From contig CM102284.1 of the NCBI GenBank assembly GCA_046563655.1, positions 1,612,001-1,676,000 on the forward strand: DNA of 64,000 nt. Reading direction: 5' to 3'. Positions 7,391-52,920 of this stretch are shown piece by piece. The DNA is from Yuukianura sp. NJ FZ-2021. Taxonomy: Eukaryota. Below the pieces are notes generated by a model. The model was not told where the DNA came from, did no database searches, and worked only from the letters and a program-made list of their open reading frames with translations. The position numbers and the translations under genes were made by a program. How positions within the stretch are numbered: position 1 is the first letter of the stretch; every line of letters begins with the position of its first letter.

Positions 7391-8313
7391 TAATACACTC
7401 AAACCTTTCCACCAAAATTTCTAGCATATCGAAGTTTAAATTCCTTCATTTCCAGGTCCATGAGCGACTCGTAGACTTTAGTATTGATCCGTGTTAATTT
7501 CAAGTCAAAAATTAAAAATATGTAAAATGAGTATTGACGAAGAACGTTTTGATTTCCGGGTACATGTAGATGCGACGGATTCACTTCAACCAGAGACCTT
7601 TCTAGTGGTGGCTCATTAAAAACCAAATGAACAACTGCACAAGGAAAAAAAATTCACCTACAACTGCTGTTGTTCTAAATATTAACTAATGCCCCTGTAC
7701 ATAGCCGTGAGTATCGTTACTTACTTTCGACAGCAACAGAGTCACAGTCAACTCAACATAAAGCAGCAGCATAGCAGTAGTAGAGAGATTAATGCAAATA
7801 CAAGTTGAGCAATAGTGTATTATTTTATTTACAATAATATTTGATTTAACCCCACCTTTTTTCGTGCGTTTTTCCGAAATGTCGCCGCTCAAGCGTTGCC
7901 ACCCATTGTAGCTACTCACGATGGCTGCCAGCGGCTACACTGAGGGGCTAGAATGAAGGTCCTTATAGCTTACCTCAACCGAGTTTCTAACCTTATAAAG
8001 CAAACATCTGATGCATCCAAAATCCGAGATTTAGGGTAGCCCGCATGCGATGCCCGATCCTGCTGGATTGGAAGCTCGCACGCCTGCCTTGCCTGGGACA
8101 GGGACAGTGAAAGTGTCGAACTATGGATGAAACGGAGTGGAATTTTGGTCTGATTAGATTAATGATGCGATGAGTCACAGTCACTCATCATTAACTTCAC
8201 TTAAAATAATTACAGTTCCAATCTGCCTGGTCTGAAAAGACAAAGGAAAGTTTGGAAGCTGCTGGTCCTGTGGTTAGGATTCTTCATTGTCTTTGCATCC
8301 GAAAGACAAAAAA

Positions 8314-10311
8314 ATGGATCAAACTCCTCCAACGTTTGTTTACTTGGACAATTCCAACATATTTGTCAGTTCGCAGTCATACTCCAGCAAAATCAACAAC
8401 TACAGAGATGGGGTGATGGACATCCAATGTCGTATAAACACCAGCATACTACTTGACATCGTTTTGGACGGAAGGAACCCCATGCTGAAGAAGGCTTATG
8501 GGAATATGCCGAAAGAGGTGGGTCAATGGGTGCACATTTTGAATTGTTATGGTATTTTTTAAATATATTTTGGTTTTCGCTTATTGTTAGTTATTTTGGT
8601 TGGAGAGTAGATCCTGATCCGCAGTCTGTTTTTCTTTTAGTTCTTTTAGTTAGGTTATCAAATCAGGACACAGTGCACGGTGTTGAAGTTCAACACCGTG
8701 CACTGTGTCCTGATTTGATAACCTAACTCGCACTAAAAGAAAAACAGACTGCGGATCTACTCTCCAACCGTTATTTTTAGGTTTCCATGCATAATTTTCG
8801 TTTTTTCATCGACAGGTGAAACATGAGTTGGACAAGGCCGGATTCAAAGTGTTCCTATCAGATTCCGTAATAGGAGAAAAAGAAATCGACACCAAATTAA
8901 CAGCTGATGCTGTGGAAGATATTCTTATTCATCACTTTCGATCAAAGGATTTGAAAGGTCACAATGGGACTCTTATTCTTCTTAGTGGAGACAGGGATAT
9001 GCTACCGCTCATTCACTTGGCTAGAAAATACGAATGGGACGTGGAAGTATGGGCTTACGAAAACTCACTTACAGGAGCGTTCCAGATTGAGACAGAACGC
9101 AAGGAATACGGCAGCTTGATGGAGATCAAACCACTTGAAAAGCATTTCAAGGAATTTGTTTTCTATGATGAGAGGGTTCCTGATCTTGAGAAGAATAAGG
9201 AGCGGACTATCCTTGTTAGGTATTTTCATTTGATTTATACTGTTTGAAGTTTTCGATATGGGGAAAATGCTTTACGTTATAGATTTCGGGACAAAGGAGC
9301 CACGCTGAAAAAATTATCGCCAGATTCTAAAAGCAACGTGACACAGCTAGTATTAGAAATAGCAAAAGCCAAATTTCGTTTGCCAGTCGTTGGAAAAATT
9401 TTGGAACTGGATAACGGAAATGAACAAGCAGTTGCAATCGTTCTCGTTGTGGACGACCGGAAACAAAAGAAACCAGTCTATAATTTTCAAACAGATGTGG
9501 TTGACAAGTTTCCGGAATTTGAACGAGACTTAAGCAACCAACTTAGGAACAAGTTTATAAAGACAAGCGTTCACGTTTTGAATTTGGATCGTTCCGTGGG
9601 AAATACGGAGATTACGCAAATATTTCAAAGTTTTGGAGCCATTGTTGCATGTCATCTGGACCGTGATGACCAAGGAATGTCTAAGGGCGCAGCAATTGTT
9701 TGCTTTCAAAATGAATCATCAGCGATTAAAGCCATCAATACACTAAATGGGACCAAGTCACTAAACAATCAATTCCTGAGTGTCCGTCCGTACACTCCAG
9801 GTAATTCAAATTGATTTATAATTAATTGCTAAGACACTTTTTTTATAATGTAATAAGTTCCATTTCTGATTGTAAAATAGGTTCCTTTTCTGTTTCAGAA
9901 TCTGGAATTGACGCAGTATCAGTAACAATTTTCAGCGATATGACTCCACCAGCAAGAAATCACGGACGAGATGGTGGCAATACAGGGAATGCTGCTGGTG
10001 CTGCTACAGGAAATCGACATAACAGTACTAATAGTAGTAGCGGCGAGGCAAAAACTTATGGACAAAGTTCCAGCGGCGGTAGCGGAAATACTGCTCCTCC
10101 AAGAAATAGACAGAATAGTGCTAACACTGGCAATGGAGGCGCTAAACCAAAGGGCAACATTCCAGCACATCTTCATAAAGCATATCGTACCAAGTATTGC
10201 ACTTACGAACATTGTGACAAAGGGAAATGCGTAAGAGCTCATTCAGATGAAGAAATACGATGTTACCACTGCGGAGAGAACCACTTTTCTGAAGTTTGCA
10301 GCAAAAAGTGA
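8314..10311 (+). CDS. NYN (LabA/DUF88-type PIN) ribonuclease - RRM - G/N-rich linker - CCCH finger - CCHC knuckle protein, 4 exons, ~515 aa
   Basis: Exons 8314-8517, 8816-9219, 9283-9800 and 9881(or 9899)-10311 splice in frame at GT-AG. NYN motifs FVYLDNSN, EKEIDT, LLSGDRDM, WDVEVWAY; RRM VHVLNL..SKGAAIVCF; YRTKYC-x4-C-x4-C-x3-H and C-x2-C-x3-H-x4-C. Confidence 0.85.
8598..8769. mobile_element. Palindromic MITE in intron 1 of the NYN gene, 8-bp TSD
   Basis: Near-perfect 172-bp palindrome GGTTGGAGAGTAGATC...GATCTACTCTCCAACC centred on GTTGAAGTTCAAC, flanked by GTTATTTT at 8590-8597 and 8770-8777. Confidence 0.9.
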
Positions 10312-10450
10312 GTTATAAAGGGTCAAAGTGCTAAAAGAAAAACAGTGATTTATGTACATGGTATAAAACCAATCATTGTGGTTAGGCGATGCATAAGAAT
10401 TTTTGAAAGCGATTTTATCATGGCATGTATTTTTCTTAAGTTCGGCAAAA

Positions 10451-11011
10451 CGTAGCACGCCATTAGATCAAAAAAATTAGGTAAGCAGAATTGACGTCAG
10501 CAGAAAATAGGTAAGTTGAAATTAGGTAAGCAATGCATTTAGGTAAGCAATAGATTTAGGTAAGCAGAAAAGTGGTAAGTAGAAAGTAGGTAAGCGGCAT
10601 AATTAGGTAAGCAGGATTTACATAAGTCACGAAGGCAAAATGTTTGGTTAGGGTTTGCTCGTTACGTAAGGTTAACTTTATAGTTTCCCGCGCCGGAGGC
10701 GCGGTGTTAGGTTTTCAAAAGTTTGAGATACTGATTCCGTCTCGAGGGCCCTCGTTAAGGTTTGATTATGTTATCTAACGACCAAAATTTGAGCACTAAA
10801 TAAATAATAACTTTTTTCAAAATTTCACCTTCGTGACTTTTGCAAATCCTGCTTACCTAATTATGCCGCTTACCAACTTTCCACTTACCTCTTTTCTGCT
10901 TACCTAAATCTATTGCTTACCTAAATGCATTGCTTACCTAATTTCAACTTACCTATTTTCTGCTGACGTCAATTCTGCTTACCTAATTTTTTGATCTAAT
11001 GGCATGGAACC
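10451..11011 (-). mobile_element. Foldback / Mutator-like non-autonomous element A with AGGTAAGC repeat arms
   Basis: ~175-bp inverted arms each with 8 GGTAAG-type units; TSD CGGCAAAA at 10443-10450 and 11012-11019; ends CGTAGCA.../...TGGAACC; central hairpin CCCGCGCCGGAGGCGCGG-TGTTAGGTT. Confidence 0.9.
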
Positions 11012-11251: not shown

Positions 11252-12495
11252 TCATGGCTTCACTTGTAAAATATTTCCCAGTCCATATCGCTTCACATAC
11301 TTGTAAGCAAATAGTTCGCCATCTAGAATATACTTGGCCGTTTGTATATAATTTTCAACTGCCGGGTCATCTGGGAAGTATTCCAGTAGTTTGTTAGAGC
11401 ATAGCATAAAATCGGCATAAGCAAAGTGAAGATTTTGGAGGGAAATTTGAAAAGAATCGTCCAGTGACATTCCAGTCTGTGCCACACGCAGCAAAATTGG
11501 ACTCTCATGGATAGCCTTTTCCTTCAAATCTTTTTTAATCCAAAGATAGCATTGGCATTCACGCAAATTTCAGAGTAGCTTGTCACCATTTGGTCAAATA
11601 GGAGATCATCCCTGACTTCTTCCGGAAGTTGAATTCCAAAGCATGCACAAAGGAATTCCAAGTACAGCTCCATTCCATGGACATAGTGTAGCACTTGTGA
11701 ACTTAAATTCGGATGCATAAGATGTTGCCGCTTCGAAGCCAACTCAGTTTGCAGTAACTTTGCCTGAGCAGTTAAATAAGCACAGCGCATGGGAGGTTTT
11801 GAAAAAAAGTTTTCCCGCAAATTCAGTTCGGAAAGATCATTCAAAAACTGGGTACAAATTTTGACCAATCCAGATAACGTTTCACTTGGCAACATCGCGA
11901 AAGATTTAGCCGCGTACATCATAATCTCCTGATTGGATATGGCCAGACTCCAGCGCCGATGGAACCCCGCGTAAGGCACTGATTTTGTAACAGTTTGCGC
12001 ATGCTCGTCATGTGCGTCTATAAAATCATCTACGGCGTACGTTACACACCAAGTGTAGCTAATTGTGCGCATTACACGTGACTGTATGTCTTTTGAAGGA
12101 CTAAGGCATGCCGTTGCGACGATGAACTCTTGAAGCATTTGAGTCAATTCAGCAGCCGATTTGTGCGGGAAAATCGGTTTGCAAAGGTCAAGAAGATGAT
12201 TGGCGAGGTCACGGGTTGACTCTGTATCGTCCAAGCAAGAAGGCACAACGTACTCTCCCGGTTTCAAGACAAAAGGAATCTCACCGCGGCAGTTTTGAAT
12301 TTTACCAAAGACGGGATCAGATATTGTTCCAAGGTCAAACGACATTCCATGAAAATTCCTCCGATTTAAAAACGGTAGTGGAGGCCTGACACGCCCAAAC
12401 CCACAAAATTTTGAAACTGAACATTTTTGTCTCCAAAACAAACTTTTTGTTGGCAAATTTGAAATTTTTAAAAAACTTGAGACAGATTTGAACAT
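11252..12495 (-). pseudogene. Microbial-type class I terpene synthase-fold gene, copy 1, with a single 1-nt frameshift near 11531-11536 (pseudogene, assembly error or slippery site)
   Basis: Collinear with 13209-14453. AVDDFID (DDxxD), GIQLPEEV, NAIFGLKK|DL, KRY. The A-run has 6 A where 7 would keep the paralog's frame; the two ORF halves are otherwise intact. Confidence 0.7.
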
Positions 12496-13208
12496 TTCTT
12501 TAAGTTTTGTTGCACAAATACAGTGATGGATGTTGTGACACACTGAAACTTCTACTGAGCACATCATTAAAATATTTAACATGATATATTAAATATTTTA
12601 TCTATCTTCATTAAAGTTGTGAATTAACTGGTGTTTTGCGTGGAAACTTCCTTTAATGTAATTTCATGCTACAATTTATGCACGCCATAAGAAACTTAGG
12701 TTGACGTAAGTATTGTCGACCACGACTGGGGCTGTAGGGTACAGCGATAAAGTGTCGACACTCTCCACACCTTGTGTAAAGCACACCTCATCGCAACGAA
12801 TTTTGCCGGTTAGGTATTATGTTTTTGTGTTATCAGAAACTAAGTTGCCATGTAAGTAAAGTTGCCCTCCTAACGTAGCCACAAAGCGTGAATTGTTGCT
12901 GGGTACAATTGCGATCGAAAGACTTACTTCAACCAACATGAATTAAATGGGAGGAAAGGGAATAAAATTTCGCTTTTTCTCAAGAATGACGACGGCAAAA
13001 TAACTTATTGTCAAAACACCATGAATTTTGCTAGTTAACAACAAAAATACACAATTCACACAATAAGGATTTAAACTTATAATACCTATATAATATAATA
13101 TTATTTTATTTTTGCATTTTTTTCAGTTGCCAATTTATTTAACTAAATAGGATATTATTTTATGCCAGTTACAGTCTGAGCATGTAGGAATCATGCGTGT
13201 TGCCATCT

Positions 13209-14453
13209 TCACGTTTTCACTTGTAAAACATTTTCCCCTCCAAATCGCTTCATAAATTGGTAAGCAAACAGCGCACCATCTAAAACGTACTTGGCCATTT
13301 GTATATAATTTTCAACTGCCGTGTCTTCTGGGAAGTATTCCAGTAGTTTGTTGGAACTTAGCGTAAAATCGGCATAAGCAAAGTGAAGATTTTGGAGGGA
13401 AATTTGAAATGAATCATCCAAAGAAATTCCAGTCTGTGCCACACGCAGTAAAATTGGATTCTCCCCAATTCCCTTCTCTTTTAAGTCTTTTCTCAATCCA
13501 AAGATAGCATTGGTATTGATGCAGATTTCAGAGAAGCTGTACAACATTGGTTCAAATAGAATGTCTTTCCTCACTTCTTCCGGAAGTTCAATTCCAGTAC
13601 AGATGCAAATAAATTCCAGGTTCAACTCCATTCCATGGACATAATGAAATATCCTGGAATTCAAATTTGGTTGAAAGAAAGTTTCCCGCTTCCGACTCAT
13701 CTCAATGTGTAATAATTTCGCCAATGCAGTCTGAAGAGCACATCGCATGGGATATTTTGAAAAGAATTTTTGGCGTAACTTGAGAGCCGACAATTCATCC
13801 ACAAAAATGTTGCATGCTTTAACTAGTCCCGAACTGGCCTCACTTGGCAACGTCGCAAAAGTTTTTGCCGCGTAGCTAATGATGTTCTGATGTGACATGG
13901 CCCATGTCCAGTGTCGATGGAATCCCTTGTATGACACTGCCCGAGCAACTGCTTGCGCATGCTCAGCATTTGAATCAATAAAGTCATCTACGGCATATGC
14001 TATACACCATGTTAAACAAATCGCCCGCATTTCACGTGACTTGACGTTTATGTAAGGACTTAAACAGGCACTAGCCGTAATAAAGTCTTGAACTATTTGA
14101 GTCAACTGCTGATGAGATTTAAGCGGGAAAATCGGCTTACAAATGGCAACAAGGTCATTGACGAGGTCACTATTTGGATCGGGGTCACTCACGATAGATG
14201 GCAGCACATATTCTCCTGGTTTCAAAAGAAATGGAATGTCACCGCGGCAGTTTTCAATTTTACCAAAAACAGGATCCGATATTGTTCCAAGGTCAAAAGA
14301 CATTCCGTGGAAGCTACTTTGAATTGACAAGCTAGAAGGTGTAGTGATGCAACGATAGGTACAAACTTTTGAAATTGTGTCTACTTTTCGCCAAAACAAA
14401 ACTTTGTTTCGGAAGTTTGAAATTTTCAAAAAATTTAAAGCGAATCTCGACAT
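13209..14453 (-). CDS. Microbial-type class I terpene synthase / isoprenoid synthase-fold protein, copy 2, with putative mitochondrial presequence
   Basis: Intronless, 414 aa: YAVDDFID, GIELPEEV, NSE-position NAIFGLRKD, NPILLRVAQTGISLDDSF (cf. NLVxVL..GxSLQEA), KRF near the C-terminus. N-terminus is R/K/S/F-rich and nearly free of acidic residues. Confidence 0.8.
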   Translation of the reverse strand: MSRFALNFLKISNFRNKVLFWRKVDTISKVCTYRCITTPSSLSIQSSFHGMSFDLGTISDPVFGKIENCRGDIPFLLKPGEYVLPSIVSDPDPNSDLVNDLVAICKPIFPLKSHQQLTQIVQDFITASACLSPYINVKSREMRAICLTWCIAYAVDDFIDSNAEHAQAVARAVSYKGFHRHWTWAMSHQNIISYAAKTFATLPSEASSGLVKACNIFVDELSALKLRQKFFSKYPMRCALQTALAKLLHIEMSRKRETFFQPNLNSRIFHYVHGMELNLEFICICTGIELPEEVRKDILFEPMLYSFSEICINTNAIFGLRKDLKEKGIGENPILLRVAQTGISLDDSFQISLQNLHFAYADFTLSSNKLLEYFPEDTAVENYIQMAKYVLDGALFAYQFMKRFGGENVLQVKT

Positions 14454-23347: not shown

Positions 23348-25143
23348 TTAAAAATAATTTTCTGATTCCTTACATTTCTTTGCTACGTACGCGTCCACCA
23401 CTACCCTTACTAGCGGAAGAACAGTTTGTACCAACTTCTTCACTATAGAAAGCAAAGTACAAAAACAAATAAAAAATTCTCAATGTTTTTAGAAAATTCG
23501 AAAAGAAAGGAAATTATACTCACAAAATCCTCCTCTTTTTTTCTTGGAGTTTTGCATTGCTGCTCGTTGTTCCTTCAGTTCATTTTCTAGTTGGGCCAAT
23601 CTAGCAGTTGTTTCTCTTTCTAACGCATCTTTTTGTTGTTGAATTTGTTCCATTTCTTGCAGAATTCGTCTCCGTTCAGACTCTTGGTCCGATTTTAAAT
23701 TTGCCATTTGCTCGGCCATTCCCGCCAAAATATTCTCAAACCGATTGCAGTTCTTGTCAGATTCGGCTTTGACAGAAGCCATCTCTGCTTTACTATTGTT
23801 CAGTTGAACGTAAAATTCAAACGTTCGCTTTATGTCTTCAGTGAGAGCGTCCAAATATTCTCGGGTAATCGATGCATCTCCGATTTTTTTTAATCCTTTG
23901 AAAAGTTCTATGCTTTCCTTCATCAGTTGCCTGAAATACAGAAATTTTTGAACAATTAGATTTTTTTTAATTGAAATTTTATATTTTAAGAAATTCAAAT
24001 ACGTGTGGAAATCGAACAGCCGATCACGTGGAACTCCAGCATTGTCGTTTCTTTGTAAAAACTCCTTCAATTTTCGGTCGTAGTTTTTGATTGCAGCGTC
24101 TTTTGCTACTTCATGCTGAGCTTCAGCAGTAGATTGGTACAAAGTTTTAGTTTCTGGAATATTCTGAGTCAACGCATGCGCCCATCCCTCTACCAGAACT
24201 TGCAGTTGCCTCCCAGTCACGGCATGACCTCGGATGACCTTGGGAATAAGCTTGTCAGGGTTCAAAACGGTGGCGGTCAATTGTTCAAGATGCCGAACAA
24301 ATTCTGGTTCGACTTTTTTCAAATGAAAGTTTCCGTTTCGTGCCAATTCCTGTCCAGGATGCGGCATCAAGTAGACTCCGACAGACTCAAAACTGTCCAG
24401 GATCATCTCATGGACAAATTTTACTTCTGGAGGACTTCCTTTCTGGGGATTGATGAAATCCCTTTTAAAATTTTTCCCGCCACTGGATACATGGTCGTCA
24501 TAGTAACCATAGGAGTAGTCACCATGTTCAAAGTCTCGAACGAGGAACATAAGCTTTTGAAAAGGCTCGCTTTGGACTTCAGCATCTTCAACTCCAAGAC
24601 GGGCAAATCCGGCAAAAAATTGCAAAAATTGCAAAATGTCTTCGCTGATTTGGTTTTTGACGTTGAAAATAAGATGTGAGGATAGGAGCGAGCACAAGGA
24701 AAAAACGATTGCGTTTTCTTGCATTGTCGTTTGATTGTCAAAACTGCCTTGACTGTCTACCATCAGCAGAGCAATCCTAGAGCCTGACAATTCAAAAACA
24801 ATTTTAAAAAATTTTTTGTTTTCTTTTTTTGAATTTTTGTTATACCGTCAGATTTTTGAAGAATGAACGGTTCTCCCCAGATATATATTCCTGTTGTTTC
24901 GGGCTTGGTTCCGGATCGATACTTGAAGAAATCTTCGAGCGGATCTTCAATCCAATTCTGTTTTCCGGGAGATTTCAAAAAACGCAGAAAAACGGAGAGT
25001 AGAAAGGACTTTCCATGACGCAGCGGTCCGCAGATAGAGTAAATGGCAACCGGCAAATCTCCAACCGTTTTCAAAATTGAATTCAAACCTTCAGCGTTTA
25101 GTTCGTACTTTTCTCCAATTCTGCTGTAAATTTGAACCGCCAT
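23348..25143 (-). CDS. Atlastin/guanylate-binding-protein (GB1/RHD3) family large GTPase lacking the TM hairpin
   Basis: G1 GPLRHGKS, G2 PETTG, G3 DSQG, G4 LVRD, LMPHPG; helical bundle, coiled coil, then KKKRGGFLKKLVQTVLPLVRVVV in the last exon; 4 exons. Confidence 0.85.
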
Positions 25144-25593
25144 TGTTAGGTAGCCACAGTAGTTCGCAACGCTATTTGTTTTTGTCCAAGAGCTGAAATG
25201 AAGTTGAAGTGAAGAGTTCAATTTAACTTGAATCCGGAATCTGCTCAAATCAAATGCAAAGAAGTGCAAATTTGCAAACAAAAGCTACTATAGCAAAAAA
25301 TTATCTTTTGATTTCTGCGAAAATGATGATATGCGGTTTTCTTAGTCATTGTGTCAACACTTTAGTTGTGACTCCATGAAACACATAAGTTTTCTGCACA
25401 CAACAAAACATGAAAATGACTCACCATTTTCAATTTAATTGAACTCTGTCAAGTAATTCCTAGTTTACGTTGTGTTTTATTTATATAAAACTCAGCTTAT
25501 AATAATCCTATGCACTTTATACTACTATATGATTAGTATGCATTTCAATTCTAAAGAAATTTAGACTGATATAAAAGAGTCAAGTAATAATAT

Positions 25594-29480: not shown

Positions 29481-31139
29481 AGGGAGGCAGCGACGACATG
29501 ACGAGAGAGGAGGTAGTTTTTTTTGCAATCTGCCAATCTCTTATGTGTGTAAAATTCAAATCCTGAGGTTCCCGCGCTTTTCGAATCCGAACTCTGCGTT
29601 GATATAAGGAGTAACGACAACAGTTAATTTTACAATGGTGTCGCCGTAGCCATAGCCAATTTAAAATTTCCAACAGATGGTTACACTAACAGGTATGTTT
29701 GTGGCAACCCATGTTGCCGTTTTTCTTCGCACTTGGACTTACCAACTTGAACGCACGTTTTCATGTCAATCCAATCTTACAGTGGATACACAAGGTACAC
29801 ATGATCCTTACTATAATCATAAATTTCTTGCAATTATTATAATTTGGTTGACGTCAGGGTAACACGACTTGCTTTGTGAGCACAAAACCGACGCAGTTCG
29901 TTTAATCGACACTTATACTGATGGAAATATTTGCCAAAATTATGAAAATTGCATAATGCGAAACATTTATCATATTTATATAAAATATATTATACAAAAA
30001 GAAAAAAGGAATTGTAAAAAAATTTAGTACTAATCTGGATTAGTCACATACTATTCACTTTTGGTATTAATATGAATATAAGATATATTTCGGATAGCTT
30101 AACTTTGGACAAAACGTTTTGTTTTGTTTGCTACAATAAAAATTTCGCATTATAAACGAAGTTCGAATAAAACTACTTTTCAAAAGCTTCAGTTTTCGTA
30201 GTTTATTTTATAAAATATTTGACAAACAGCAGCATTTACTATTTGATGGTGATTTTTAACTGCAATAGCAAAACCCACACCTTCACAGCGTGATCGCTAA
30301 AGAAAAAATAACTAATCTAGTCCTCAGATTTCCAGTACAATTCAGTGATAACTGGAATTGCCAAGATTTTCCAAATCAACTTCCAATTCAAAATGACAAA
30401 ATCAAAATATGAATACAAAATGTCACACTCCGTGTGCCAAATTTTTTTTTATAATATTTTTCCACTGCTGTCTTTTACGTTTTTGAATAAAGTAAAAATC
30501 CATTTGGAGCACTATGCGAGCACTTCAAATGAAGGTTGCAAAATTCAAAATTAACATTCCATAGCATGTTCTTTTCAGTAGAGGCCATACAGTCGCATAT
30601 GAGAAAAAATGTCAGTAAAGAAGAATTTCGTGATTTTATTTATCTGAAATTTCATTGAAATTTAGTTCAAATTTAGTAAGGCGTTGCTTTACTATTAAAA
30701 TAGAAATGAAAAAAAAAATTCTTGGTTTGATTTTTTTTCGTAACGGAATCTTTTGACCTCTAAAGTTTTGTAGAGGTCGAAGGTAAACCCCGGCCAAAAT
30801 CATGAGAAAATCGTTTTTGAAAATGATGCTTAATAATTTTATGCGTTCTGGCGAAGCGGCAAGCATAGTGGAAGTGGTGAAGCCATTACACGAAATCTTG
30901 TGCGAACTGCTTCAAAATATTTATGAATAAAGAAAACACGGCGTCTTTGTCACGTATATCAATAGTTTGAGAGACATGAGTAGTGGAGCGGCATTTTTGG
31001 TTTTGATTAACTTTACATTCCAAGGAGGCTTTAAAAACGCAGTTTCTACTCATCGCAATTTCTAGAATATTGAAATTAAACTATTTTTCTTTTGTAGAAG
31101 TTTTGTGACACTTTTGTGTTCCTTCGAAACCTGTTCAAA

Positions 31140-31931
31140 ATGCAACATGTACTTTTCATTCTGTTGGTTGCTTCGCTTACTGTAATCAACTGTCAATCTA
31201 CAACTGCAGCACCTACAACTGCTGCAACGACAACTGATACAACTACAACTGCTGCAACGACAACTGATACAACTACAACTGCTGCAACTACAACCGCAGC
31301 AACTACAACTGCTGCAACTACAACCGCAGCAACTACAACTGCTGCAACTACAACCGCAGCAACTACAACTGCTGCAACTACTACCACGCTTCCAACTACT
31401 CCGACAACTGCAGCAACTACTACCACGCCTCCAACTACTCCGACAACCCCAACAACCCCCACAACTACTCCGACAACCCCAACAACCCCCACAACTACTC
31501 CGACAACCCCCACAACTACTCCGACAACCCCGACAACCCCCACAACTACTCCGACAACCCCGACAACCCCCACAACTACTCCGACAACCCCGACAACAAC
31601 AACTATTACTACAACCACGACTACTCCTGCACCGGCAGTCACGTTACCGCCTTACAGTTAAGTTCACTGTTAATTTTTTTTATCGAAAGTTTTATTTTAA
31701 ACAATGTTTCAAACACTTCTTCAGCTGTTCCTGCTTCACCAATAACCTGCGCCCTCATACCTCGTTACACTACCAACACTGGGTATACTTGCGTTTGCGG
31801 AAACGGAATGTACACTTGTACCTCAACTGTTGGTAAGTTTTTACTCAAAAAATAAAATTTCAATTCTACAAAATTTAAAAATTGGTAGATATAAAAACTG
31901 ATATTTTATTTTCATAGTGGTCAGAGGCTGA
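31140..31931 (+). CDS. Secreted Thr/Pro-rich mucin-stalk protein with C-terminal 4-Cys mini-domain and VVRG micro-exon
   Basis: Exons 31140-31656, 31725-31832 and 31918-31931: signal peptide, TTTAA/TTP repeats, CALIPRYTTNTGYTCVCGNGMYTC, VVRG*. Confidence 0.8.
31199..31625 (+). repeat. Coding tandem repeats (ACTACAACTGCTGCA / CCGACAACC units)
   Basis: Seen directly; encodes the TTTAA and PTT repeats. Confidence 0.9.
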
Positions 31932-42132: not shown

Positions 42133-43712
42133 TTACAAACTCCAAATATCAACCATGGTTCCATTTTCAAGTCGAACGTAGTTGGCCCGTTCTGTCCAAA
42201 TGTCGCGTGACAAGTCCAGTTCCACAACACGAGCTCCACGGTCCCAGTCTCCGTAACCACCGTAACCAGTACGTCGGTTGTAACAAATTTCCAAAGTTTC
42301 GTATTTGCAACACCACGAGTTACCTAACAATAGTTTATATAAAAATAAATATATAAATATATTAATTAATACAAATAAATTCTAAGATAGATATAAATAA
42401 TATATAAATGTATTTGTAGGCATACCATGGTCATGTCCGACAAAAGTTGTCAAAACGGTGGAGTCCAGCAATTGAAACATGAATCCTGTGTCCAGGTCTT
42501 GCGGTACGACTTTGTCATCTGTAAATTTTTAAAAGCACAAAAACCGTATAAAAATTTAACACAAAATTTCAGTTTAGCAAAATTCAAAATTGTAAAAAAA
42601 AAAATGATGTTGTACTAAAGTCCATCCTTACCAACTAACCCAACACACTGGTAATTCTCAATGTTGTCTTGGACAATATCGTAGTCAATTCTACAAAACC
42701 AAGAGACAGCAATGTTATCTACCTTTTTTTAAAGAAATTTTTAAGATTTGAGAGAAATTTTTTTTCAAAAAATTTCCACCTACGTTGGAATATGAAAAAA
42801 TGCCAAGGCCGGAATTTCTCCCCAAGTGGCAGCAATTTGATCTCGTTCAGCCATAAACCATTGAACAACAGCTTCATCAACATACGACGGGTAGATTCCG
42901 TTGGGGTCAAATCCACCGCGAGAATCAAAAAACCAAAGAATAAGCGCTGGAACGTCGCCCTCTTGTTTGTAAACAGGCAAGTAGTAATTTGTGAGTCCAG
43001 GTAAAGATGGATCTCCGTGTTGAGTGTAGGAGTTGGCATATTTGGATTCAGTTCCGAAGATCTCTTCTCTGGTAGTGGTGAGTCCGTTGTCATGGTTACC
43101 ATAAGTAGAAGCCCACTTGTAACCTCCTTGTGACACAGCCTCAAAGCAAGCATCGATGAATCGGGTTGAATTGGCAGCTACGGCATCGGCTGTCATCAAG
43201 TCGCCCGTGAAAACGACTAAATCTGGCGTCTCCATGTCCAGAAGCACCTTCATGACACGCGTTGAATTTGCATCTTGTTCCTTTCCAGTCCCTTCACCTA
43301 CTAGTTCAAGTTCACCATAGTGCCTATTTTAAAAAAAATTTACAAGATTTTTGTAACATTTTTACAAAAATTTTGCTACATTTCTACAAAAATTCTAAAA
43401 CAAACGCATAACTTATAATTTAGGTCTATAAATGTCCTGAATCAGAAGTTATGAGTTGAAACGAAAATAAATTATAAAATTAATTTTACTTATTTTTGTT
43501 CAAATTTAATAGTTTATAATTCCCATGTTATCGAAATTTAGTGGGAAATAATCATGTAACGACGTAATACGTGAGTGCGAAACTTACAAATCAGCAAAAT
43601 TCATAATTTTGAATTTCCCATTCGAGTTGAATCGAAGTGGCTCCTTGACAACGGGCAAAGCGTGTAGGAGTTGAGCCAAAAGCAAGAGGCCAGTGACAAG
43701 TGAAAACCTCAT
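42133..43712 (-). CDS. Secreted calcineurin-like metallophosphoesterase of the Dcr2 / plant PAP16-29 type, copy 1 (5 exons)
   Basis: Signal, LRFNSNGKFKIMNFADL|HYGE, PDLVVFTGD, YGNHD, FFHIP, GHDH, RRTGYGGYG..RGARV. Confidence 0.88.
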
Positions 43713-44611: not shown

Positions 44612-46068
44612 TTACAAACTCCAAATATCAACCATGGTTCCATTTTCAAGTCGAACGTAGTTGGCCCGTTCTGTCCAAATGTCGCGTGACAAGTCCAGTT
44701 CCACAACACGAGCTCCACGGTCCCAGTCTCCGTAACCACCGTAACCAGTACGTCGGTTGTAACAAATTTCCAAAGTTTCGTATTGGCAACACCATGAGTT
44801 ACCTAACAACAGTTAGTATGAAAACGTATTAATACAAACAATATTCAAATATAAACACAAAGAATGAATACATTAATTTGTAGGCATACCATGGTCATGT
44901 CCTACAAAAGTTGTCAAAACGGTGGAGTTGAGCAATTGAAACATGAACCCTGTGTCGATGTCTTGTGGTACTACCGCGTCATCTGTAGATCGTACCAGCA
45001 CAAAAATGATGTTAAAATTCTCAGTTCATCAAAATTAAAATTTTAAAAAACCGTTGTTGAACCGTTAACAAGTGAGGTCCATCTAATACTTACCGACTAG
45101 TCCAACGCACTCGAAAATTTCAATATTGTCTTGAACAAACTCGTAGTCAATTCTACAAAACCAAAGATAGAAAAAATATAGGTCCAAAATTATATAAATT
45201 TCTAAGATTAGAAAAAAAAAGTTTTCATTTTTCACTTACGTTGGAATATGGAAAAATGCCAACGCTGGAATTTTTCCCCACTTGGCATCAATTTTATCTC
45301 GTTCATCCATAAACCATTGTACAACGGCTTCATCAACATACGAAGGGTATGTTGTTGTTGAATAAAATCCACCGCGAGTGTCAAAAAACCACAGAATGAC
45401 TGCTGGTACGTCGCCCTCTTGCGGGTAAACAGGCAAGTAGTAGTTTGTGAGTCCCGGTAAATTTGGATCTCCATGTTGAGTGTAGGTGTTGGCATATCTG
45501 GACTCAATTCCAAAAATGTGTTCCCGCGAAATTGCGACTCCGTTGTCATGGTTACCATAAGTAGAAGCCCACTTGTAACCTCCTTGTGACACAGCCTCAA
45601 AGCATTGATCTATGTATTGACCTGGATTGATAAGTATGCCATCAGCTGTCAGCAAGTCGCCCGTGAAAACGACGAAATCTGGTGTCTCCATGTCCAGAAG
45701 CGACCTCATGACGCTCGTTGATTTTGAATCTTCGTCATTTCCAACAAATTCACCATAGTGCCTATTTTGAAACAATTTTACAAAAATTTAAAAAAAATGA
45801 AAAGGAACTCAGAAGTTTTGATTTAAATAAATATAATTAATACATTAATTATTTTTGTTATTTAATATTTCATTATGTCCGTATGTAGTTGAACTTTAGT
45901 GGAGCGTGTGATTCAAGTAGTGACGCAGTAATTCGGGACTTACAAGTCAGCAAAGTTCATAATTTTGAATTTTCCATTGGAGTTGAATCGTAATGGGTCC
46001 TTGGCAACGGGCGAAGCGTTTAGGAGTTGAGCCAACACCAAGACGCTAGCGATTAGTGAAGACCTCAT
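44612..46068 (-). CDS. Secreted Dcr2/PAP-type metallophosphoesterase, copy 2 (tandem duplicate)
   Basis: Same exon structure and motifs as copy 1; the upstream region is also duplicated. Confidence 0.88.
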
Positions 46069-47234
46069 TGGGAGAAACGAATTTCAAAAAATCTACAAAT
46101 GCTAGATGAATTTGAGCTAATTTGAAAATTTTCGAAAGCTGATGAGTGCAATCGAGCTGTATTTTTTAGTAGTTTTAATACTATCAGTATCAGTCAATTC
46201 GGTTGTTGAAATAATGTCAATTCCTTTAACAACTTGATAAACTTGAAATTTGACAATTTGAGTGATTAGATTGAATTGCAAAATTGAAGTTCAACATTAA
46301 TGTTGAATTCCTCGAGTTATATCATGTGGTAGAGTGATTGATTCTTCGGAAATCCGATGTCGTTTGAAAATTGCTTAAAAAGTGAAGTGCTTAGCCTTCA
46401 CACACGTTTGCTCATATGCCTCTTTAATTTAGTAATTTTTTTGGTTTTGGAATCAAAAATGAAATTCCAAAAAAGCGATAAAATATTCCAGGTGTTTTGA
46501 ACTTGTTTTAACAAAAAAAAAATTTTTATTTCCTCAACAAATACAAAAAAAATGTCAAATTTTTTAAATTTTGGGTTCGAGATAGTGTGCTTAAAATAAA
46601 GCCTTGAGACTTTTATTTCTATCGTTTACTGAAACCAAAGATTACTGCAAATCAAGCCTTGCCACTATTTTTGAACTTTTATGAAAAAAGGACATAAATT
46701 GACGTGAATTTTGTGGTAACATGTCGTGCAAATGTTTAAAAAAAAATTAAGCTACAGAAGATTTTTTATAATTCTATGCTATTTTCTTACTTTACTGCTG
46801 TGCTAATATTATACTGAAAAGCAGTTTCATAAAACAGAAACTTGAAAAGTTGCATGAAGAAAATGGAATTGAAAAGGCGAGTGGTCAAGGCAAACAAAAA
46901 GAAAAGTTCTGAAATGCTTTGCCTAAAAACCAATTTTGGTCTATTTTCGGAATCAATTTCACAAAATCTGCCGGTGGACTATTTTTCAGAATATCATTTT
47001 CCAGTTATTGCCAAAAAGTAAACATTTTAGGTTTTCAAATTTGGAAATTACGTTGTCAGAATGTACTCGTAGCTGTGGAACATTAAAAAAAAATTGGACT
47101 AGTTGAAATTTCGATCAAAACGGCTTCTATAAAAAAAGTCTTTTTACAAACTAAATCGCGTTAGACACGAAAGCTGAAATTTTGGTATTCCGCCGCCTGA
47201 ACGAAAACTTTGTTACATTTTTTTAAAAGCTAAC

Positions 47235-48867
47235 ATGGGATTTTCGTTTTCAAAATCTCACAAAATGGATATGGCGCTGCACTTTAGGTGGATTAAGTTC
47301 CTTATGGAAGTTGGTAATTTGTTCGGAGTTTTACCAGTGCTGTGGGACTTTGATCAAAGTATGCTTGTGGCAGTACGTCCTCAAAAGTTCTGTTTTAGAC
47401 CATGGGACATTACAAAATGGAGTTGGATTGGTCATCAACTGTTTCTAGTTTATGGATTTATTCACATTTACTGTCAAAATCAGTCCAATGGAGACATGGC
47501 ACAACAATTGGTGAGACACTCCATGGCGTTTATGGCCTCTGCAATTCCTACAATTGTTCAAGTGTTGCTCATTTTTCGTATGGATGAAGCCATTTCCGCT
47601 TGTAACCGCCTTCTCTACTTCTTTGCACTAAATCCAACCGGTAAATTTTTGAAGTTTACAATTTTTGGAATTTGTGAATTTGAAGGTAGATTTTGTAATT
47701 TATATTCACGGTTCGTAAACAAAAAAAACTCTTTTTACACCAGCTTGTCCAATAACTGGAAGTGTGAATAACTTGTGTGAAAAAAAATGTGCCTTTCTAT
47801 GGTATCTTTTTGCATGAAATATAAATATGGATTGGTGCAGAATTAGTTCAGTTTGTTTGAAGTTAATTGTTTGAAGTAAGACTTTTGGAAACCCTGAGGT
47901 AGTGGACAACCTGCTGTAGGAAATAAAATTTGCTGTATTTTGGTTGTCAAGGAACCTTGGTTATCTTTTGGTTTCAGTTGAGTATGCTGAACCTGCTACT
48001 ATTTCAAAATGGACCAGACACCTCGCACTTAGTGGACTGGTGATGTCAATTGGTAGTGTTCCATTTGCATTTGGATATGTCATTGTGGCATTGAAGTTCC
48101 CCGAACGACCACAGTTTCTGACTGGAGTACTTCCGGTTTCAACTGCAAATTATGCAAAGTACTACCTTGCTCCGCCCCTTTTTGGTTTTACTTTGGCCTC
48201 ATATTTAATTGTGGTGGCGGTTGCGCAGATCTGTGTAGCAATCAGTTTTGTGACGCTCCGTTTTCTCAATTATCTAAGGTATAACAATACGCATGCAACA
48301 GATTTGAAATTTCACATTCCAATTTTCAAAACTATAAGACTAAATATTTGGGATGATTTAAATTTATTCAGATCAAACTCTGCCCAAGAGCACACGACAC
48401 CGGAAGTCTTGATCTTAAGTTACAAATGTCTGCAAATTATATACATTCAAATTAACTCACTGTTTTGTGACTATGTTGTTCCAATTCTCAACACGTCAGG
48501 GACAATCATTGTGATCGTTTTCAATTTTGCACTAATTGCACTCAAATTATCAAGCATTATAATGCTCATTGTTCTTTTCATTTCGATGGCTACAATATCT
48601 TATATTCTACTTGCCTATGGCACGTTGGGCGGTATTACGGATGAGTCCAAAAAATTTATTTTCATCACTGGAAACAACGTTGGACGCTTTCAAAACAACG
48701 ACCAAAGTTGTCCTCTCGTTATTTCAAAATACCTGAAGTCCTTTCGTCCAATTCGAATCAAAATAGGACAATTTGGAACTTTTGATAGTCGTAGAAGCTT
48801 AAAATCCATTGGAACAATATTTATCTATACTGCAAGATTCACATTGACAGTTAAAAAACTACTGTAA
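47235..48867 (+). CDS. Divergent 7TM chemoreceptor-like protein, 3 exons
   Basis: Multi-TM exons ~47235-47640, 47979-48278 and 48372-48867; YKCLQI, and YLKSFRPIRIKIGQFGTF C-terminal motif. Confidence 0.65.
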
Positions 48868-49521
48868 CTAAACTTCACTTACAATTTAGTTAATTTAAAA
48901 TTAAAAAGCGATGTAGACTAACTCTAAGTTTAGCATAAGCTTAAAGTTAGCTAATTTTGAAATTTGAAATTGAGAATTACTTTTTCTTTAACAGGTTCGG
49001 CAATAACTTGAGTTTTAAGTTTTTTTTTTTTTTTTTTGCAAAACAAATCAAACCTGAATTCACCTAGTTTCAATCGCTGTTGGTATTGTAAGCTAATCCG
49101 AATGAAAAAATTCGGAGAGATGACTTTTGCTTTGGCAAATTCAAAGTAGAAAAGGAGTTCCAGATAGAAAAAAAAAACAAGGTAGAAAAAATTGCATGAC
49201 TCCAGATTTTTCGAAAAACTGGACTTATTGCGTAACCTGTTAAAGGAAAACTATTTCGCTGCCATAGCAACCTTGCCGTGCACTACACGAATGGCAATAT
49301 ACAAAACTTATGCCTTGTACACTATGCCTCAAAACATACTTCTAAAAGGAGGATATATCGTCTGCAAAAGTCAGCCGCTTAATAAGAACCAAAGCCTACC
49401 TAGAAATATCAATCAAAACACTTTCAAGTCGACCTGAATATAAAAGTGGCGTTTTTATGTTGGTGTGAAGTTGGTTCTATTTAGGATTTGACTTTCCGCA
49501 TCCACAATCAACCGCTTAGAA

Positions 49522-51474
49522 ATGTCTAAAAGAATTTTGGTTTTTACGATTTTGATACCACTTTGCCTGTCAGTGGGCAAGTCAAACTTGGACAATTTTG
49601 TAAATTGCCTTCAGCAAAATGGTTTATCGGAAGATTTGATTGTGACCAATAAGGATTCCGACTTGTATCGAGAACTCGATTTCCAAGAAGAGTTTTCCCC
49701 ATACGACGTCAAACCTGCAGCATTTGTTCTACCGGAAAACGCTGGTCATGTCAAGGTCATTGTTTCGTGTGGAAAATGTCATGCAGTTCGAATCGTACCT
49801 AAATCCGGCGGTCACTCGTCAGAAAAATATTCGTTTGGGGATCCGTCCTCAGTTGTCGTTGATCTTCGGAAATTAAATTCCATCGTTCTTGACAAATCGA
49901 GTAGAAAAGTTAGCGTCGGCGCAGGAACACGTGTAGGTCCACTGCTTAAAGCACTTTGGAATCAAGGTAAAATGTTTTTCCCGACAGGAATTTGTCCAAC
50001 GATTGGAATCGGAGGTCACGCAACCGGCGGTGGCCACGGTTTTTTGGCCAGAACGTACGGCCTTACATTGGATTACATTTTGTCCATGGACGTTGTCATA
50101 GCCAATGGGTCATTACTCACAGTGAGTCATGTGACTGGAAGTGACCTGTTTTGGAGTCTGCGCGGAGCCGGTGCCAATTCGTTTGGAATTGTCACATCTT
50201 TTGTATTCAGAACAGTTCCAGCTCCTCGGGCAGTAAAAGTTAGGACGCTGAAATACAGTTTGAAAAAATTTAAGAAAGTGTTTTCGGCTTGGCAGAATTT
50301 TCTTGTACAGGGTACGCGAAGCATAAATGGTCAACTGTACATAGACGAAAAAGAAATTCGAATATACCTGTTCAGTGTCATCCCGCCATTTTTTGAACAA
50401 ATCGACAGCAGTTTCCCGCCAACTCACTACAATACAACAAAATCTTTATCATATCCAGAGTTTCTTCACTATCAAGCGTACGCCTTCCCCGAGTCTTCCG
50501 GTGAGCTGAGTTCTAACTTACGAGGGAACATCCCCAACCTGTCTTTGAGTTTTTGAATTTAAAAAATACAGTCATATTCTGCATGTCAAAAGAAAATTTT
50601 GTGTAATAGTTTCGGTTGCCAACGCCGAAAAAAAATACCCCAACATGCATGGGCTCGAACCCCCGGACACACTCCAGGAAGTAGCAAGATTTTTTATGTC
50701 AAATTCTTCAGCAGAAAACGTCCAAATTGTATGCCATAACATCCTAACCGCGTTTTCTGTTGAAATATTTGACATTAAATTTTTTTCACTCCTCTGGAGC
50801 CACGGGTTCGAGCCCAGGTATGGGAATTTTTTTTTTGGCGTTGCCAACCGAAACTAAGGTAGAAAATTTTCTTTTCACATACAGAATATGACTGTATTAT
50901 TTAAATTTAAAAACTGGACAACAGGTTGGGAATGTTTCCTCGTTAGAAATAATCAAAGGCATTTTCAGGTGACGAGTCAATCAGCTCTGCAGGTGAAAAG
51001 CCTAACTCATCTCAACAACGACCGAACATCATTGGAAAGTCTTTCTTTGTTCAAAAGGCTCTCAAGGGTGCCGAAATTACTGAACTGCACACATTGTTTG
51101 ATGAGCAGCCAACAAATGCCACTTTTCGGTTTGAAGGCTACGGTGGCGCTATCAACGACCTAGAAGACAGCGCAACGTCGTTTGTGCACAGAAGAGGAAG
51201 GCTTGCAAACGCAGTTGTGAGGTTCGAGCAAAGTGGAGACACAAACTTGAATTCCCGTGGAATAAATTGGATTAAAAAATTCTATAAAAATGGTTGCGTT
51301 CTCTTCGATAGTCATGAAACTTATCAAAATTATCCCGATCGAGAAATAAAAAATTATCTACACAGGTACTATGGACGTAACCTCAGGCGCCTAATTCAAA
51401 TCAAGCAAAAATATGATCCAAATAACTTTTTTCGGTACCCACAATCAATACCTCATGTAAGCCGCATCAATTAA
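49522..51474 (+). CDS. Secreted berberine-bridge-enzyme-like FAD oxidoreductase (VAO/PCMH family), 2 exons
   Basis: Exons 49522-50500 and 50969-51474; KSGGHS (His) and GICPTIGIGGH (Cys) bicovalent-FAD motifs, DLFWSLRGAG..FGIVT, YQNYPD, YYGRNLRRL..KYDPNNFF..QSIP. Confidence 0.92.
50607..50856. mobile_element. MITE in the BBE-like gene intron
   Basis: Inverted ends TAGTTTCGGTTGCCAACGCC / GGCGTTGCCAACCGAAACTA, extending imperfectly through GGGCTCGAACCC / GGGTTCGAGCCC; possible TA TSD. Confidence 0.8.
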
Positions 51475-51571: not shown

Positions 51572-52920
51572 TTACAAAGCAATTAAGAGATCGATTATGT
51601 TAGAAACGACTACATCTCCCCAAATATACAAAATAAATTCCATGGATTCAAATGACGCAGCGTTTCCAACCGTGACACGTAACGGCGTCATGGCTAGCCA
51701 AAACTTTTCATCGTATTTGGCCTTGTTCCGCACTTGTTTCCTGGTAACTGCAATGATTTCTTTAGATAGTAGATGGTGATTGGTGGCTAAGGTGTGTATA
51801 ATGGTAGTAGAAAAAATTGCAACAAAATCAGAAATGAAAACAGCAAATACAAGCGGAAGAGTTATTTCAGCACATCTAATCATTATAAAAGTTAAGGTAA
51901 TAACAGCAACTATGGCGTTGGCAAACCAGATAGTAAATCCTAAGCCGTAGGCTATATTGAATTCTTGTCCAGTCGCTTTAAGCTTCAAGTACTCCAATGT
52001 AAGTGGTACAGTTGACAAGACCTCGGAATCATTAGTCGTTCCTGCATTGTCGGCTGGCATTTCGCTGCAAAGAAAAAACATATGAGCAATAAAACTAAAT
52101 AATAATATAATGAAGAATAGCGTTATAATTTTTATAATAAAAATAACACCTTTATACATTTATTAATTTTTGTAACTTATTTTTTTCTGTAACTAACAAC
52201 AGCTTTGTACCTTCTTAAAAGTTCCACTAATCGCTGCTTCGTTACGAACAAATATGAGCACAACCAATGAGCATACACAAGGACATTGACTACAGCATGC
52301 CCCAAACCAATTGAGATTATTCCAATTGCACCAAGTTTAATTACAGTGTAAGTCCAAATATATGCACTGGAGTCGGGCGCGGCAGAAAAAGTGACTATGG
52401 ACACCGCAAGTCCAATTCCTTTATGCAATGAGCCAAAGAGTGCAGGAAATTGCCACCAACCAGCAAATAGCACAGGAAAGTACAGCATAGGGTAAATGAA
52501 TGCGTTGCAGCAGAAGAGAAAGCATAAAACTTCATAAGATCGCGGCAATTGTCCAGACAAATGGAACATTGCTTCTAGCGCAACGTTTGCTACATTGATG
52601 CAACGTAGGCGGAAGGCGGGAATAAGTTGAAAGAATTGAACCGCGTTCATTATGTTGAAGATGCCGTTTGCACCAATCGCTAGCGCTGTTTCGAATGCTG
52701 TTGTAGAACCAAAGAATGCTTCGTAGTACCAGTACGTTATCGCGCTTGTAACTACGGCAGTTGAAAAGATTGCAAATATTTTGCGTACTGATTCATCCCG
52801 AGTGTGGACGATGGAATCGGGTCCATTGCGTCCAAATTTGTATGAAACTGGGATGTAGTGCAGAAGTGCTCCCCATCCATACATAAGTTTTACCCACAAA
52901 TTTATCCTTCTACGAAACAT
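51572..52920 (-). CDS. Divergent 7TM chemoreceptor-like protein, 2 exons (paralog A)
   Basis: MFRRRINLW..., multi-TM; C-terminal KFWLAMTPLRVTVG..ESMEFILYIWGDVVVSNIIDLL. Confidence 0.7.

Follow-up and report, generated by a model that had tools for sequence, protein, structure and literature searches.

What kind of protein is encoded by a run of four exons that joins a nuclease domain to RNA-binding modules in a manner not typical of well-known animal proteins, and is it an isolated fusion or part of a wider family? The exons lie on the + strand at 8314-10311 of a 64,000-nucleotide (nt) stretch from Yuukianura sp. NJ FZ-2021 (contig CM102284.1, positions 1,612,001 to 1,676,000, assembly GCA_046563655.1), which we call the window; all coordinates are counted from its first letter. 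Alignment shows that their product is not an orphan fusion: it belongs, as a divergent member, to an uncharacterised family of eukaryotes that combines a NYN nuclease domain, an RRM-like middle domain, tandem CCCH fingers and a CCHC knuckle. We consider it probable that the locus is a single-copy, four-exon nuclear animal gene for a remodelled member of this NYN-middle domain-CCCH-CCHC family, acting as a targeted endoribonuclease in mRNA turnover.

The exons (8314-8517, 8816-9219, 9283-9800 and 9899-10311) join in frame, as a preliminary description made from the sequence alone had proposed. The start codon (ATG, 8314-8316) follows an upstream in-frame stop at 8275-8277, and the joined coding sequence of 1539 nt encodes 512 amino acids (aa) plus the terminal TGA, with no internal stop. 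All three introns are GT-AG with pyrimidine-rich acceptors, each would meet an in-frame stop within a few codons if translated through, and GC content is 0.40-0.44 in exons against 0.24-0.37 in introns. The parts of the gene are as follows:

8314-8517, + strand: exon 1, residues 1-68, with NYN strand 1 and the first predicted catalytic Asp (D12); GT donor at 8518; on its own without a Pfam match.
8518-8815, + strand: intron 1, 298 nt, GT..AG, containing a hairpin element.
8816-9219, + strand: exon 2, residues 69-203, with the NYN core (E89/E91/D93, D127/D129) and the first strand of the middle domain.
9220-9282, + strand: intron 2, 63 nt, phase 2, GT..AG.
9283-9568, + strand: first part of exon 3, the remainder of the family's middle domain, aligning with 13 full-length relatives.
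9569-9800, + strand: second part of exon 3, RRM_1 (Pfam match 9575-9772), with RNP2 VHVLNL and RNP1 KGAAIVCF.
9801-9898, + strand: intron 3, 98 nt, phase 1, GT..AG, GC 0.235.
9899-10182, + strand: first part of exon 4, a G/S/A/N-rich low-complexity linker in place of the relatives' first CCCH finger.
10183-10242, + strand: CCCH finger with YRTKY lead-in, C-x4-C-x4-C-x3-H, the homologue of the second finger in the tandem pair of the family.
10261-10299, + strand: CCHC knuckle-like motif, C-x2-C-x3-H-x4-C, aligning with the relatives' knuckle.
10309-10311, + strand: stop codon TGA, overlapped by GTGAGT at 10308-10313.

With exon 2 we searched 1.84 billion representative proteins exhaustively by HMMER (threshold E<=1e-3). 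This returned 57 relatives, 4 of them at E<=1e-10 and 1 at E<=1e-30. PF01936 (NYN) was found in 53 of the 57 at E<=0.01, a CCCH-type Pfam match in 3 and OST-HTH in none. The best four matches (P0001-P0004; 67, 51, 40 and 45% identity) are all exon-sized fragments, and the closest, P0001, keeps the EKE.D and SGD.D motifs. The full-length matches share one layout: behind the NYN and middle domains come two CCCH fingers separated by a short helix, the second of them after a YK.K.C lead-in, and finally a C-x2-C...H-x4-C knuckle that lies 3-15 residues before the C-terminus. Among the 19 relatives of at least 350 aa, a CCCH pattern plus knuckle occurs in 12, and at least two CCCH patterns plus knuckle in 9. 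Aligned with 13 full-length relatives, the spliced window protein is collinear with them over the NYN acidic columns and the middle domain, and again over finger 2 and the terminal knuckle. The preliminary description read the gene as a NYN-RRM-CCCH-CCHC fusion; NYN with CCCH and CCHC is no new fusion but the standard layout of an existing, uncharacterised family (those 12 of 19 long relatives).

Names were available for three relatives only: P0005 is a 'hypothetical protein / NYN domain-containing protein' of the fungus Jimgerdemannia flammicorona, and P0008 and P0058 are unnamed products of the springtail Allacma fusca; the other library matches carry no taxon labels. In the ESM Atlas, P0008 and P0030 have the same nearest large cluster, 'NYN domain-containing protein'; its 120 members are all eukaryotic, with Ascomycota the commonest phylum. 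In a quick tree of the NYN domains (54 of 59 rows, five being omitted for NYN matches shorter than 90 residues), the window protein paired with P0001 (SH-aLRT, a branch-support test, 99), joined by P0002 and P0003 (87). It thus grouped with these fragments and not with the Allacma pair. The window/P0001 pair fell within a 22-row group (SH-aLRT 91), of which the Allacma pair and P0005 are members too. As a separate observation, four relatives (P0029, P0030, P0042 and P0046) have an extra Cys-rich stretch before the NYN domain (C..C...C.H..C..C, RING-like by eye); P0029, P0030 and P0046 sit in one five-row group of the tree and P0042 nearby, beside P0022.

The nuclease domain itself was recognised by Pfam on exon 2 (PF01936; 27.8 bits, where the cut-off is 24.2; E 4.2e-6). 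This was the only family reported for exon 2 at E<=1; PF11977, the ZC3H12-type PIN, was not matched. The acidic motifs are DNSN (residues 12-15), EKEID (89-93) and SGDRD (125-129). In the alignment with 13 relatives, D12 falls in the family's DNSN/DDSN column, and E89/E91/D93, D127 and D129 likewise lie in conserved acidic columns; the motifs named in the preliminary description (DNSN, KEID, SGDRD) are all present.

Structural comparison relied on an AlphaFold2 model of the relative P0008, built on family alignment A1 (predicted local distance difference test, pLDDT, 82.7; predicted template modelling score, pTM, 0.66); the PIN-like alpha/beta fold was seen in the model of this relative only. 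Its NYN domain matched the LabA-like protein VPA0982 (2qip; Foldseek E 1.1e-6; VIA Z 18.4, root-mean-square deviation 2.9 over 156 residues) and then the NYN domain of MARF1 (6fdl, Foldseek E 3.4e-5; 5yaa, Z 15.6); the match after these scored far lower (Z 8.3). A search of PDB sequences with the family profile from A1 found the LabA-like 2qip (E 0.012), and no MARF1 chain was among the 36 matches listed at E<=1. A single-sequence phmmer search of the PDB with exon 2 gave 1v47 at E 0.68, which is chance level and was set aside. The models and profiles place the nuclease domain with the LabA/MARF1 (PF01936) kind and closer to the LabA side, because 2qip outscores the MARF1 NYN both in structure (Z 18.4 vs 15.6) and in the profile search; the LabA/DUF88 assignment made at the outset is upheld by this. 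In the PIN-like classification of PMC5499597, LabA-like proteins form group NYN.COG1432, in eukaryotes mostly fungal, and MARF1 belongs to the eukaryote-specific group NYN.1; the table there gives active-site retention in NYN.COG1432 as variable, '1-5 (+/-)'.

Between the nuclease and the C-terminus, the window protein departs from its relatives. In the P0008 model, the middle domain (residues 199-293) has the order beta-alpha-beta-beta-alpha-beta, and its sole domain-sized structural matches were the PARN RRM (2rok, Z 6.8) and the Tat-SF1 UHM (6n3d, Z 6.5), in a Z range that the tool rates as common; an RRM-like nature for this domain is a lead from modelling and not a finding. Downstream of it, exon 3 of the window gene encodes an RRM_1 domain (PF00076, 50.5 bits against a cut-off of 20.7, E 1.9e-13). 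Its PDB matches at E<=1e-3 number 57, with PABP, HuC and Sxl at their head. NCBIfam gave domain-level RRM matches alone, far under its family cut-offs, among them PABP-1234. RRM_1 was present at E<=0.01 in 0 of the 57 library relatives and absent from all 13 aligned relatives; by alignment, the window lineage has gained it after the middle domain. An RRM had been described here from the outset, as had a lineage-specific architecture. The domain stands far above the Pfam cut-off and the RRM-bearing form is restricted to the window among the sequences seen, but the RNP motifs are degenerate.

RRM domains normally stack RNA on three aromatic residues, the second of RNP2 and the third and fifth of RNP1. 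In the window RRM these three positions are H, A and I, where PABP has F at each in the PDB alignment; the domain may bind RNA in an atypical way, or may bind protein. The preliminary description set the protein apart from animal NYN proteins such as MARF1 by its domain set; NYN plus RRM is already described for MARF1 (PMC6294520).

Next to the RRM gain, the alignment indicates a loss: the family's first CCCH finger has given way in the window lineage to a G/S/A/N linker. This Cys-free segment (residues 376-470) fills the alignment columns of the relatives' finger 1 and consists of G, S, A or N at 52 of 95 residues, in agreement with the G/N/S low-complexity linker first described. The second finger and the knuckle appear from the alignment to be kept with shortened loops. 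Following the YRTKY lead-in, the CCCH ligands are C476-x4-C481-x4-C486-x3-H490, which departs from the canonical TTP-type C-x8-C-x5-C-x3-H; the CCHC ligands are C497-x2-C500-x3-H504-x4-C509, which departs from the canonical PF00098 spacing C-x2-C-x4-H-x4-C. We count both motifs as fingers because their ligands align with ligand columns of the relatives: the four CCCH ligands with finger 2, and the CCHC ligands with the knuckle, where the C..H spacing ranges over x4-x8. A comparably short finger is found in P0024 (C-x5-C-x4-C-x3-H). The window protein has a single CCCH pattern, against at least two in 9 of the 19 relatives of at least 350 aa, and so lacks the tandem pair. In PDB sequences, the family profile matched TTP/TIS11-type tandem CCCH structures (6nzl, E 9e-6; 9y10, 1.6e-3; 1m9o, 0.011; 1rgo, 0.031), and its knuckle columns matched TUT7 and retroviral nucleocapsid knuckles (8oef, E 0.0025). 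Of the four domains in the architecture first proposed, then, Pfam found NYN and RRM_1 and not zf-CCCH or zf-CCHC; the YRTKYC-type CCCH and the CCHC motif are both present and aligned with those of relatives, at non-canonical spacing.

These features bear on whether the protein cuts RNA at all. It could instead be a non-catalytic adaptor or RNA-binding regulator; the NYN domain would then be its binding platform, and the degenerate RRM a UHM-like protein-protein module. The H, A and I at the RNP aromatic positions would suit such a role, as would the weak resemblance of the middle domain to UHM and PARN RRM folds (Z 6.5-6.8) and the variable retention of active-site residues reported for NYN.COG1432 (PMC5499597). 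However, D12, D93, D127 and D129 are all present in family-conserved columns, which is unexpected if catalysis had been abandoned, and we regard the adaptor explanation as quite improbable.

Sequencing reads offered a view of copy number and constraint. Five runs shared words with the window, all guessed to be DNA: X1-X4, from one sample (word share 0.78-0.97), and X5, from another study (0.16). Over the exons, X1 contigs matched the window without differences, at a word depth of 24-26; in repeats the depth reaches 2924. This is what a single-copy gene would show, and X1 may come from the source sample. Within the 64-kb window, tblastn of the protein model returned only the gene itself, other matches having E>=3.3. 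The X5 contigs are of two kinds: some match the window exactly, whereas some differ from it by 10-13%, across the RRM exon as well; the divergent contigs may be alleles, paralogues or sequences of a related species. Between 8273 and 10224, 25 differences from these divergent contigs were listed, 18 of them exonic. Among the best-supported 40 of 230 differences, to which this tally is confined, the 18 fall at codon position 3 in 11 cases, position 1 in 6 and position 2 in 1 (binomial P 0.014). The only exonic indel listed is an in-frame 21-nt deletion at 9451 in one X5 contig. Another X5 contig diverges from the window over 10151-10210, including the finger's first Cys. The third-position bias, the intact frame and the conserved acidic residues together favour a gene under constraint.

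Two repeats lie in or beside the gene. The intron 1 hairpin is a 172-nt miniature inverted-repeat transposable element (MITE) at 8598-8769, with terminal inverted repeats beginning GGTTGGAGAGTAGATC and perfect inverted arms at 8616-8641/8732-8757 and 8648-8687/8689-8728. It is flanked by the 8-bp direct repeat GTTATTTT at 8590-8597 and 8770-8777, a target-site duplication of hAT-like kind. Its word depth reaches 2924 compared with ~25 in the flanking single-copy DNA, and one X5 contig skips 8590-8769, an empty site with one copy of the 8-mer. Directly downstream of the gene lies a foldback-type repeat (10456-11006) with 174-nt arms (10471-10644/10819-10992, 95% complementary) made of TTAGGTAAGCA-like sub-repeats and outer inverted 20-mers at 10456-10475/10987-11006; its word depth of up to 1342 makes it a repeated family.

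With the family and the read comparison in hand, the gene model itself can be weighed. The locus might be mis-modelled or decaying: a pseudogene, or a NYN gene beside an RRM/finger gene whose exons splice in frame on paper. No RNA run was found to support the splice junctions, protein searches turned up no annotated full-length protein of the locus, and one X5 contig departs across the finger's first Cys (10151-10210). The 3' end could also differ, because the consensus-looking splice donor GTGAGT (10308-10313) overlaps the TGA stop; if it were used, the last 1-2 residues would be lost and the protein would continue into a further exon. The stop at 10309-10311 fits the family, since the relatives' C-termini also come 3-15 residues past the knuckle. 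Against a join of separate genes, which had been raised as a way in which the first description might fail, stands the middle domain, which straddles the exon 2/3 junction and is split by intron 2, with the RRM sharing an exon with the rest of that domain. In addition, single proteins of one family align collinearly with exons 1 and 2, with the first half of exon 3 and with the end of exon 4, and the finger and knuckle have their homologues at the C-terminus of this same family, whose N-terminus is the NYN. Because the middle domain spans the junction and the exons are collinear with single family proteins, we treat the exons as one gene. Decay is countered by the open frame over four exons, the canonical splice sites and the third-position bias, which indicates constraint. 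Overall, a mis-modelled or decaying locus seems very unlikely. The position of intron 2 appears to be shared: P0001, P0002 and P0004 stop at the ...LV(R/V) end of window exon 2 and P0003 continues there into unrelated sequence, and because homology in all four ends at this position, the exon 2/3 boundary is suggested to be conserved as an exon boundary in related genomes.

From the gene structure, domain content, family membership and gains and losses described above we infer catalysis, RNA binding and pathway. By analogy with MARF1 and Regnase, the likeliest function would be that of a metal-dependent endoribonuclease steered by RNA-binding modules. D12, D93 (with E89/E91), D127 and D129 would hold Mg2+ or Mn2+, and the NYN domain would cut single-stranded RNA. 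Across the family, single-stranded RNA would be brought to the nuclease by the pair of TTP-like fingers together with the knuckle; in the window protein, the single finger and knuckle, possibly with the RRM and middle domain, could grip substrate RNA or a partner protein. As an endoribonuclease that carries its own targeting part, the window protein would then work in mRNA turnover, in the manner of MARF1 (NYN plus RRMs) and Regnase-1 (PIN plus CCCH). The NYN domain of MARF1 is reported as a proven endoribonuclease, stimulated by Mn2+/Mg2+, with active-site residues Asp358, 426, 427 and 452 and strongly reduced activity in the double mutant D426A/D427A (PMC6294520). D12, E89/E91/D93, D127 and D129 would be the corresponding acidic cluster of the window protein.

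The preliminary description had suggested a role in antiviral, transposon or mRNA decay pathways, with possible granule localisation via the linker. In a dedicated defence or surveillance nuclease, the RNA-binding modules would recognise foreign RNA for the NYN domain to destroy. The case for such a role is one of analogy: MARF1 limits retrotransposon RNA in oocytes (PMC6294520; PMC6217404), Regnase-1/MCPIP1 and KHNYN-ZAP are described as breaking down viral RNA, and an arms race would suit both the fast-remodelled targeting part and the several divergent family members. No result ties the gene to an antiviral, transposon or granule role. PADLOC gave no matches for the window exons, P0008 or P0001, which leaves the earlier proposal unsupported, and one weak, generic LabA-like NYN match for the relative P0005 (E 2e-4). 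The neighbouring genes are unrelated (a GNAT, an astacin, a SET-domain gene, terpene-synthase-like genes and, at a distance of 13 kb, a GBP-like gene), and the listed differences to divergent copies look purifying rather than diversifying. A dedicated defence function is, on this evidence, improbable.

Several results weigh against a targeted endoribonuclease in mRNA turnover. The NYN match exceeds its Pfam cut-off by just 3.6 bits, on exon 2 alone, and the confident structural model is that of P0008, which is 38% identical to exon 2 over residues 19-120, and not that of the window protein. The only fold obtained from the window sequence, exon 3 folded alone and without an alignment, was poor (pLDDT 55) and gives a hint at most: in it the helices and strands of the middle domain run directly on into RRM strand 1, from which the domain's final strand cannot be told apart; alignment A2 put exon 3 partly on NYN columns and was unused for folding. 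RNA binding by the window RRM is doubtful, because its RNP positions carry H, A and I and no aromatics. Exon 4 has no Pfam match at E<=1, so both fingers, with their non-canonical spacing, went unrecognised. The codon-position tally covers a part of the differences, against contigs that may be alleles, paralogues or sequences of a related species. Word-index protein searches with exons 2 and 3 for longer homologues found none at E<=1e-3, which is weak evidence, and the sequencing-run search with window words found no RNA run to support the splice junctions or expression, only the DNA-guessed X1-X5. A targeted endoribonuclease of this family is still our preferred reading.

A further question is how such a gene came to be in this animal. 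It might be a horizontal-transfer chimera, in which a fungal-type NYN-tandem-CCCH-knuckle gene in soil microarthropods captured an animal PABP/ELAV-like RRM and dropped a finger. Several hints point this way: Ascomycota are the commonest phylum in the family's only large Atlas cluster, which is eukaryotic; in eukaryotes, LabA-like PIN domains are placed mostly in fungi (PMC5499597); the named close relatives are one springtail and one soil fungus; and the window carries further genes that are patchy among arthropods, such as the terpene-synthase-like ones (PMC11665903). Fusions of transferred and animal sequence have been documented in arthropods (PMC13389597), though 'NYN' is absent from the main text of that paper and from the searched 12 of its 15 supplement files. 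We consider a transferred origin rather unlikely.

Other genes in the window were noted in passing. Tandem paralogous open reading frames (ORFs) at 11524-12588 (-; 354 aa) and 13209-14453 (-; 414 aa) both carry a DDFID motif, and the second matches Pfam Terpene_syn_C_2 (E 3.4e-6). Canonical terpene synthases among arthropods are recorded by PMC11665903 only in springtails, acariform mites and sciarid flies. Together with the Allacma relatives, these ORFs make a springtail or a comparable soil arthropod the likely source animal. A GBP-like GTPase (23489-25284, -) has a GBP N-terminal domain (E 1.6e-24) spread over at least two ORFs. The ORF at 31098-31661 (+) is mucin-like, with Thr/Pro/Ala-rich repeats after a signal-like N-terminus and all six frames open over the repeat. 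Tandem paralogous metallophosphoesterase-like ORFs lie at 42780-43328 (-) and 45236-45787 (-), the first matching Metallophos (E 1.5e-6). An FAD_binding_4 oxidase ORF at 49492-50556 (+; E 9.5e-26) is followed by an ORF at 50953-51474 (+) that, by its look, we take to be a berberine-bridge-type C-terminal part, a type of gene commoner in bacteria, fungi and plants. Hydrophobic ORFs that look multi-pass form two paralogous pairs, at 51572-53130 (-) and 59537-61246 (-), with similar ORFs at 47178-48867 (+); the one ORF of the pairs that was scanned, 52177-53130, matched no Pfam family at E<=1e-3. A guess that neighbouring ORFs encode ionotropic or gustatory receptors was dropped, as 2-1780, 47920-48867 and 52177-53130 matched 0 Pfam families.

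In vertebrates, self-contained enzymes that unite an RNA-binding part with a PIN/NYN nuclease (MARF1, Regnase, KHNYN-ZAP) have a central place in mRNA decay and in keeping viruses and transposons under control. The locus described here belongs to a separate family of eukaryotes, so far unstudied, in which a LabA-type NYN domain is joined to a TTP-like finger pair and a knuckle, and shows that the targeting part can be rebuilt within one lineage, by the gain of an RRM and the loss of a finger. If the protein is active, the family would offer a natural series for the evolution of nuclease target choice; if the gene was transferred, it would be a foreign nuclease re-aimed at new RNA targets and another arthropod fusion of foreign and host sequence. 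We regard the locus as a sound annotation and a modest lead, not the discovery of a new mechanism.

Among known systems, MARF1 (limkain-b1; NYN, 2 RRM and 8 LOTUS domains) resembles the window protein in having a PF01936-type NYN domain followed by RRM, and its RRMs are modelled as binding the target (PMC6294520). LOTUS/OST-HTH was found by Pfam in no window exon and in 0 of the 57 relatives, and MARF1 has neither CCCH nor CCHC; since it is without a LOTUS domain, the window protein is, on domain content, not a MARF1 orthologue. Regnase-1/ZC3H12A likewise pairs a PIN-like nuclease with one CCCH finger that aids RNA binding, the finger following directly on the nuclease, and the PIN-CCCH structure of ZC3H12C (7ndj) is a weak structural match to the P0008 model (Z 6.5). 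Its nuclease belongs to another PIN-like family (PF11977, unmatched in the window), and Regnase has no RRM and no knuckle; because the PIN-like families differ, the window protein is by its domain matches not a Regnase.

The C-terminal module of the family matches the tandem fingers of TTP/ZFP36/TIS11, including their (R/K)YKT.xC lead-in, for which the window has YRTKYC, but the window protein has one finger with C-x4-C-x4-C-x3-H in place of C-x8-C-x5-C-x3-H. TTP proteins recruit deadenylases and are not known to carry a nuclease of their own. For the nuclease domain, the best structural and profile match is the bacterial LabA-like VPA0982 (2qip; COG1432); bacterial LabA-like proteins are classified as single-domain or fused to OST-HTH (PMC5499597). 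Introns, an RRM and zinc fingers are all absent from them.

An architecture of LabA-type NYN, RRM-like domain, tandem CCCH and knuckle seems to be undescribed: our literature search listed no paper on it among its matches, and none was found that combines 'NYN domain' with 'springtail'. The nearest counterpart is the unnamed NYN family of Allacma and Jimgerdemannia, with which the window protein shares the LabA-type acidic motifs, middle domain, second CCCH finger and terminal knuckle in the same order, and from which it differs by an added RRM_1, the absence of finger 1 and shorter finger loops. Among the relatives examined, this RRM_1-bearing, one-finger form was seen in the window only.

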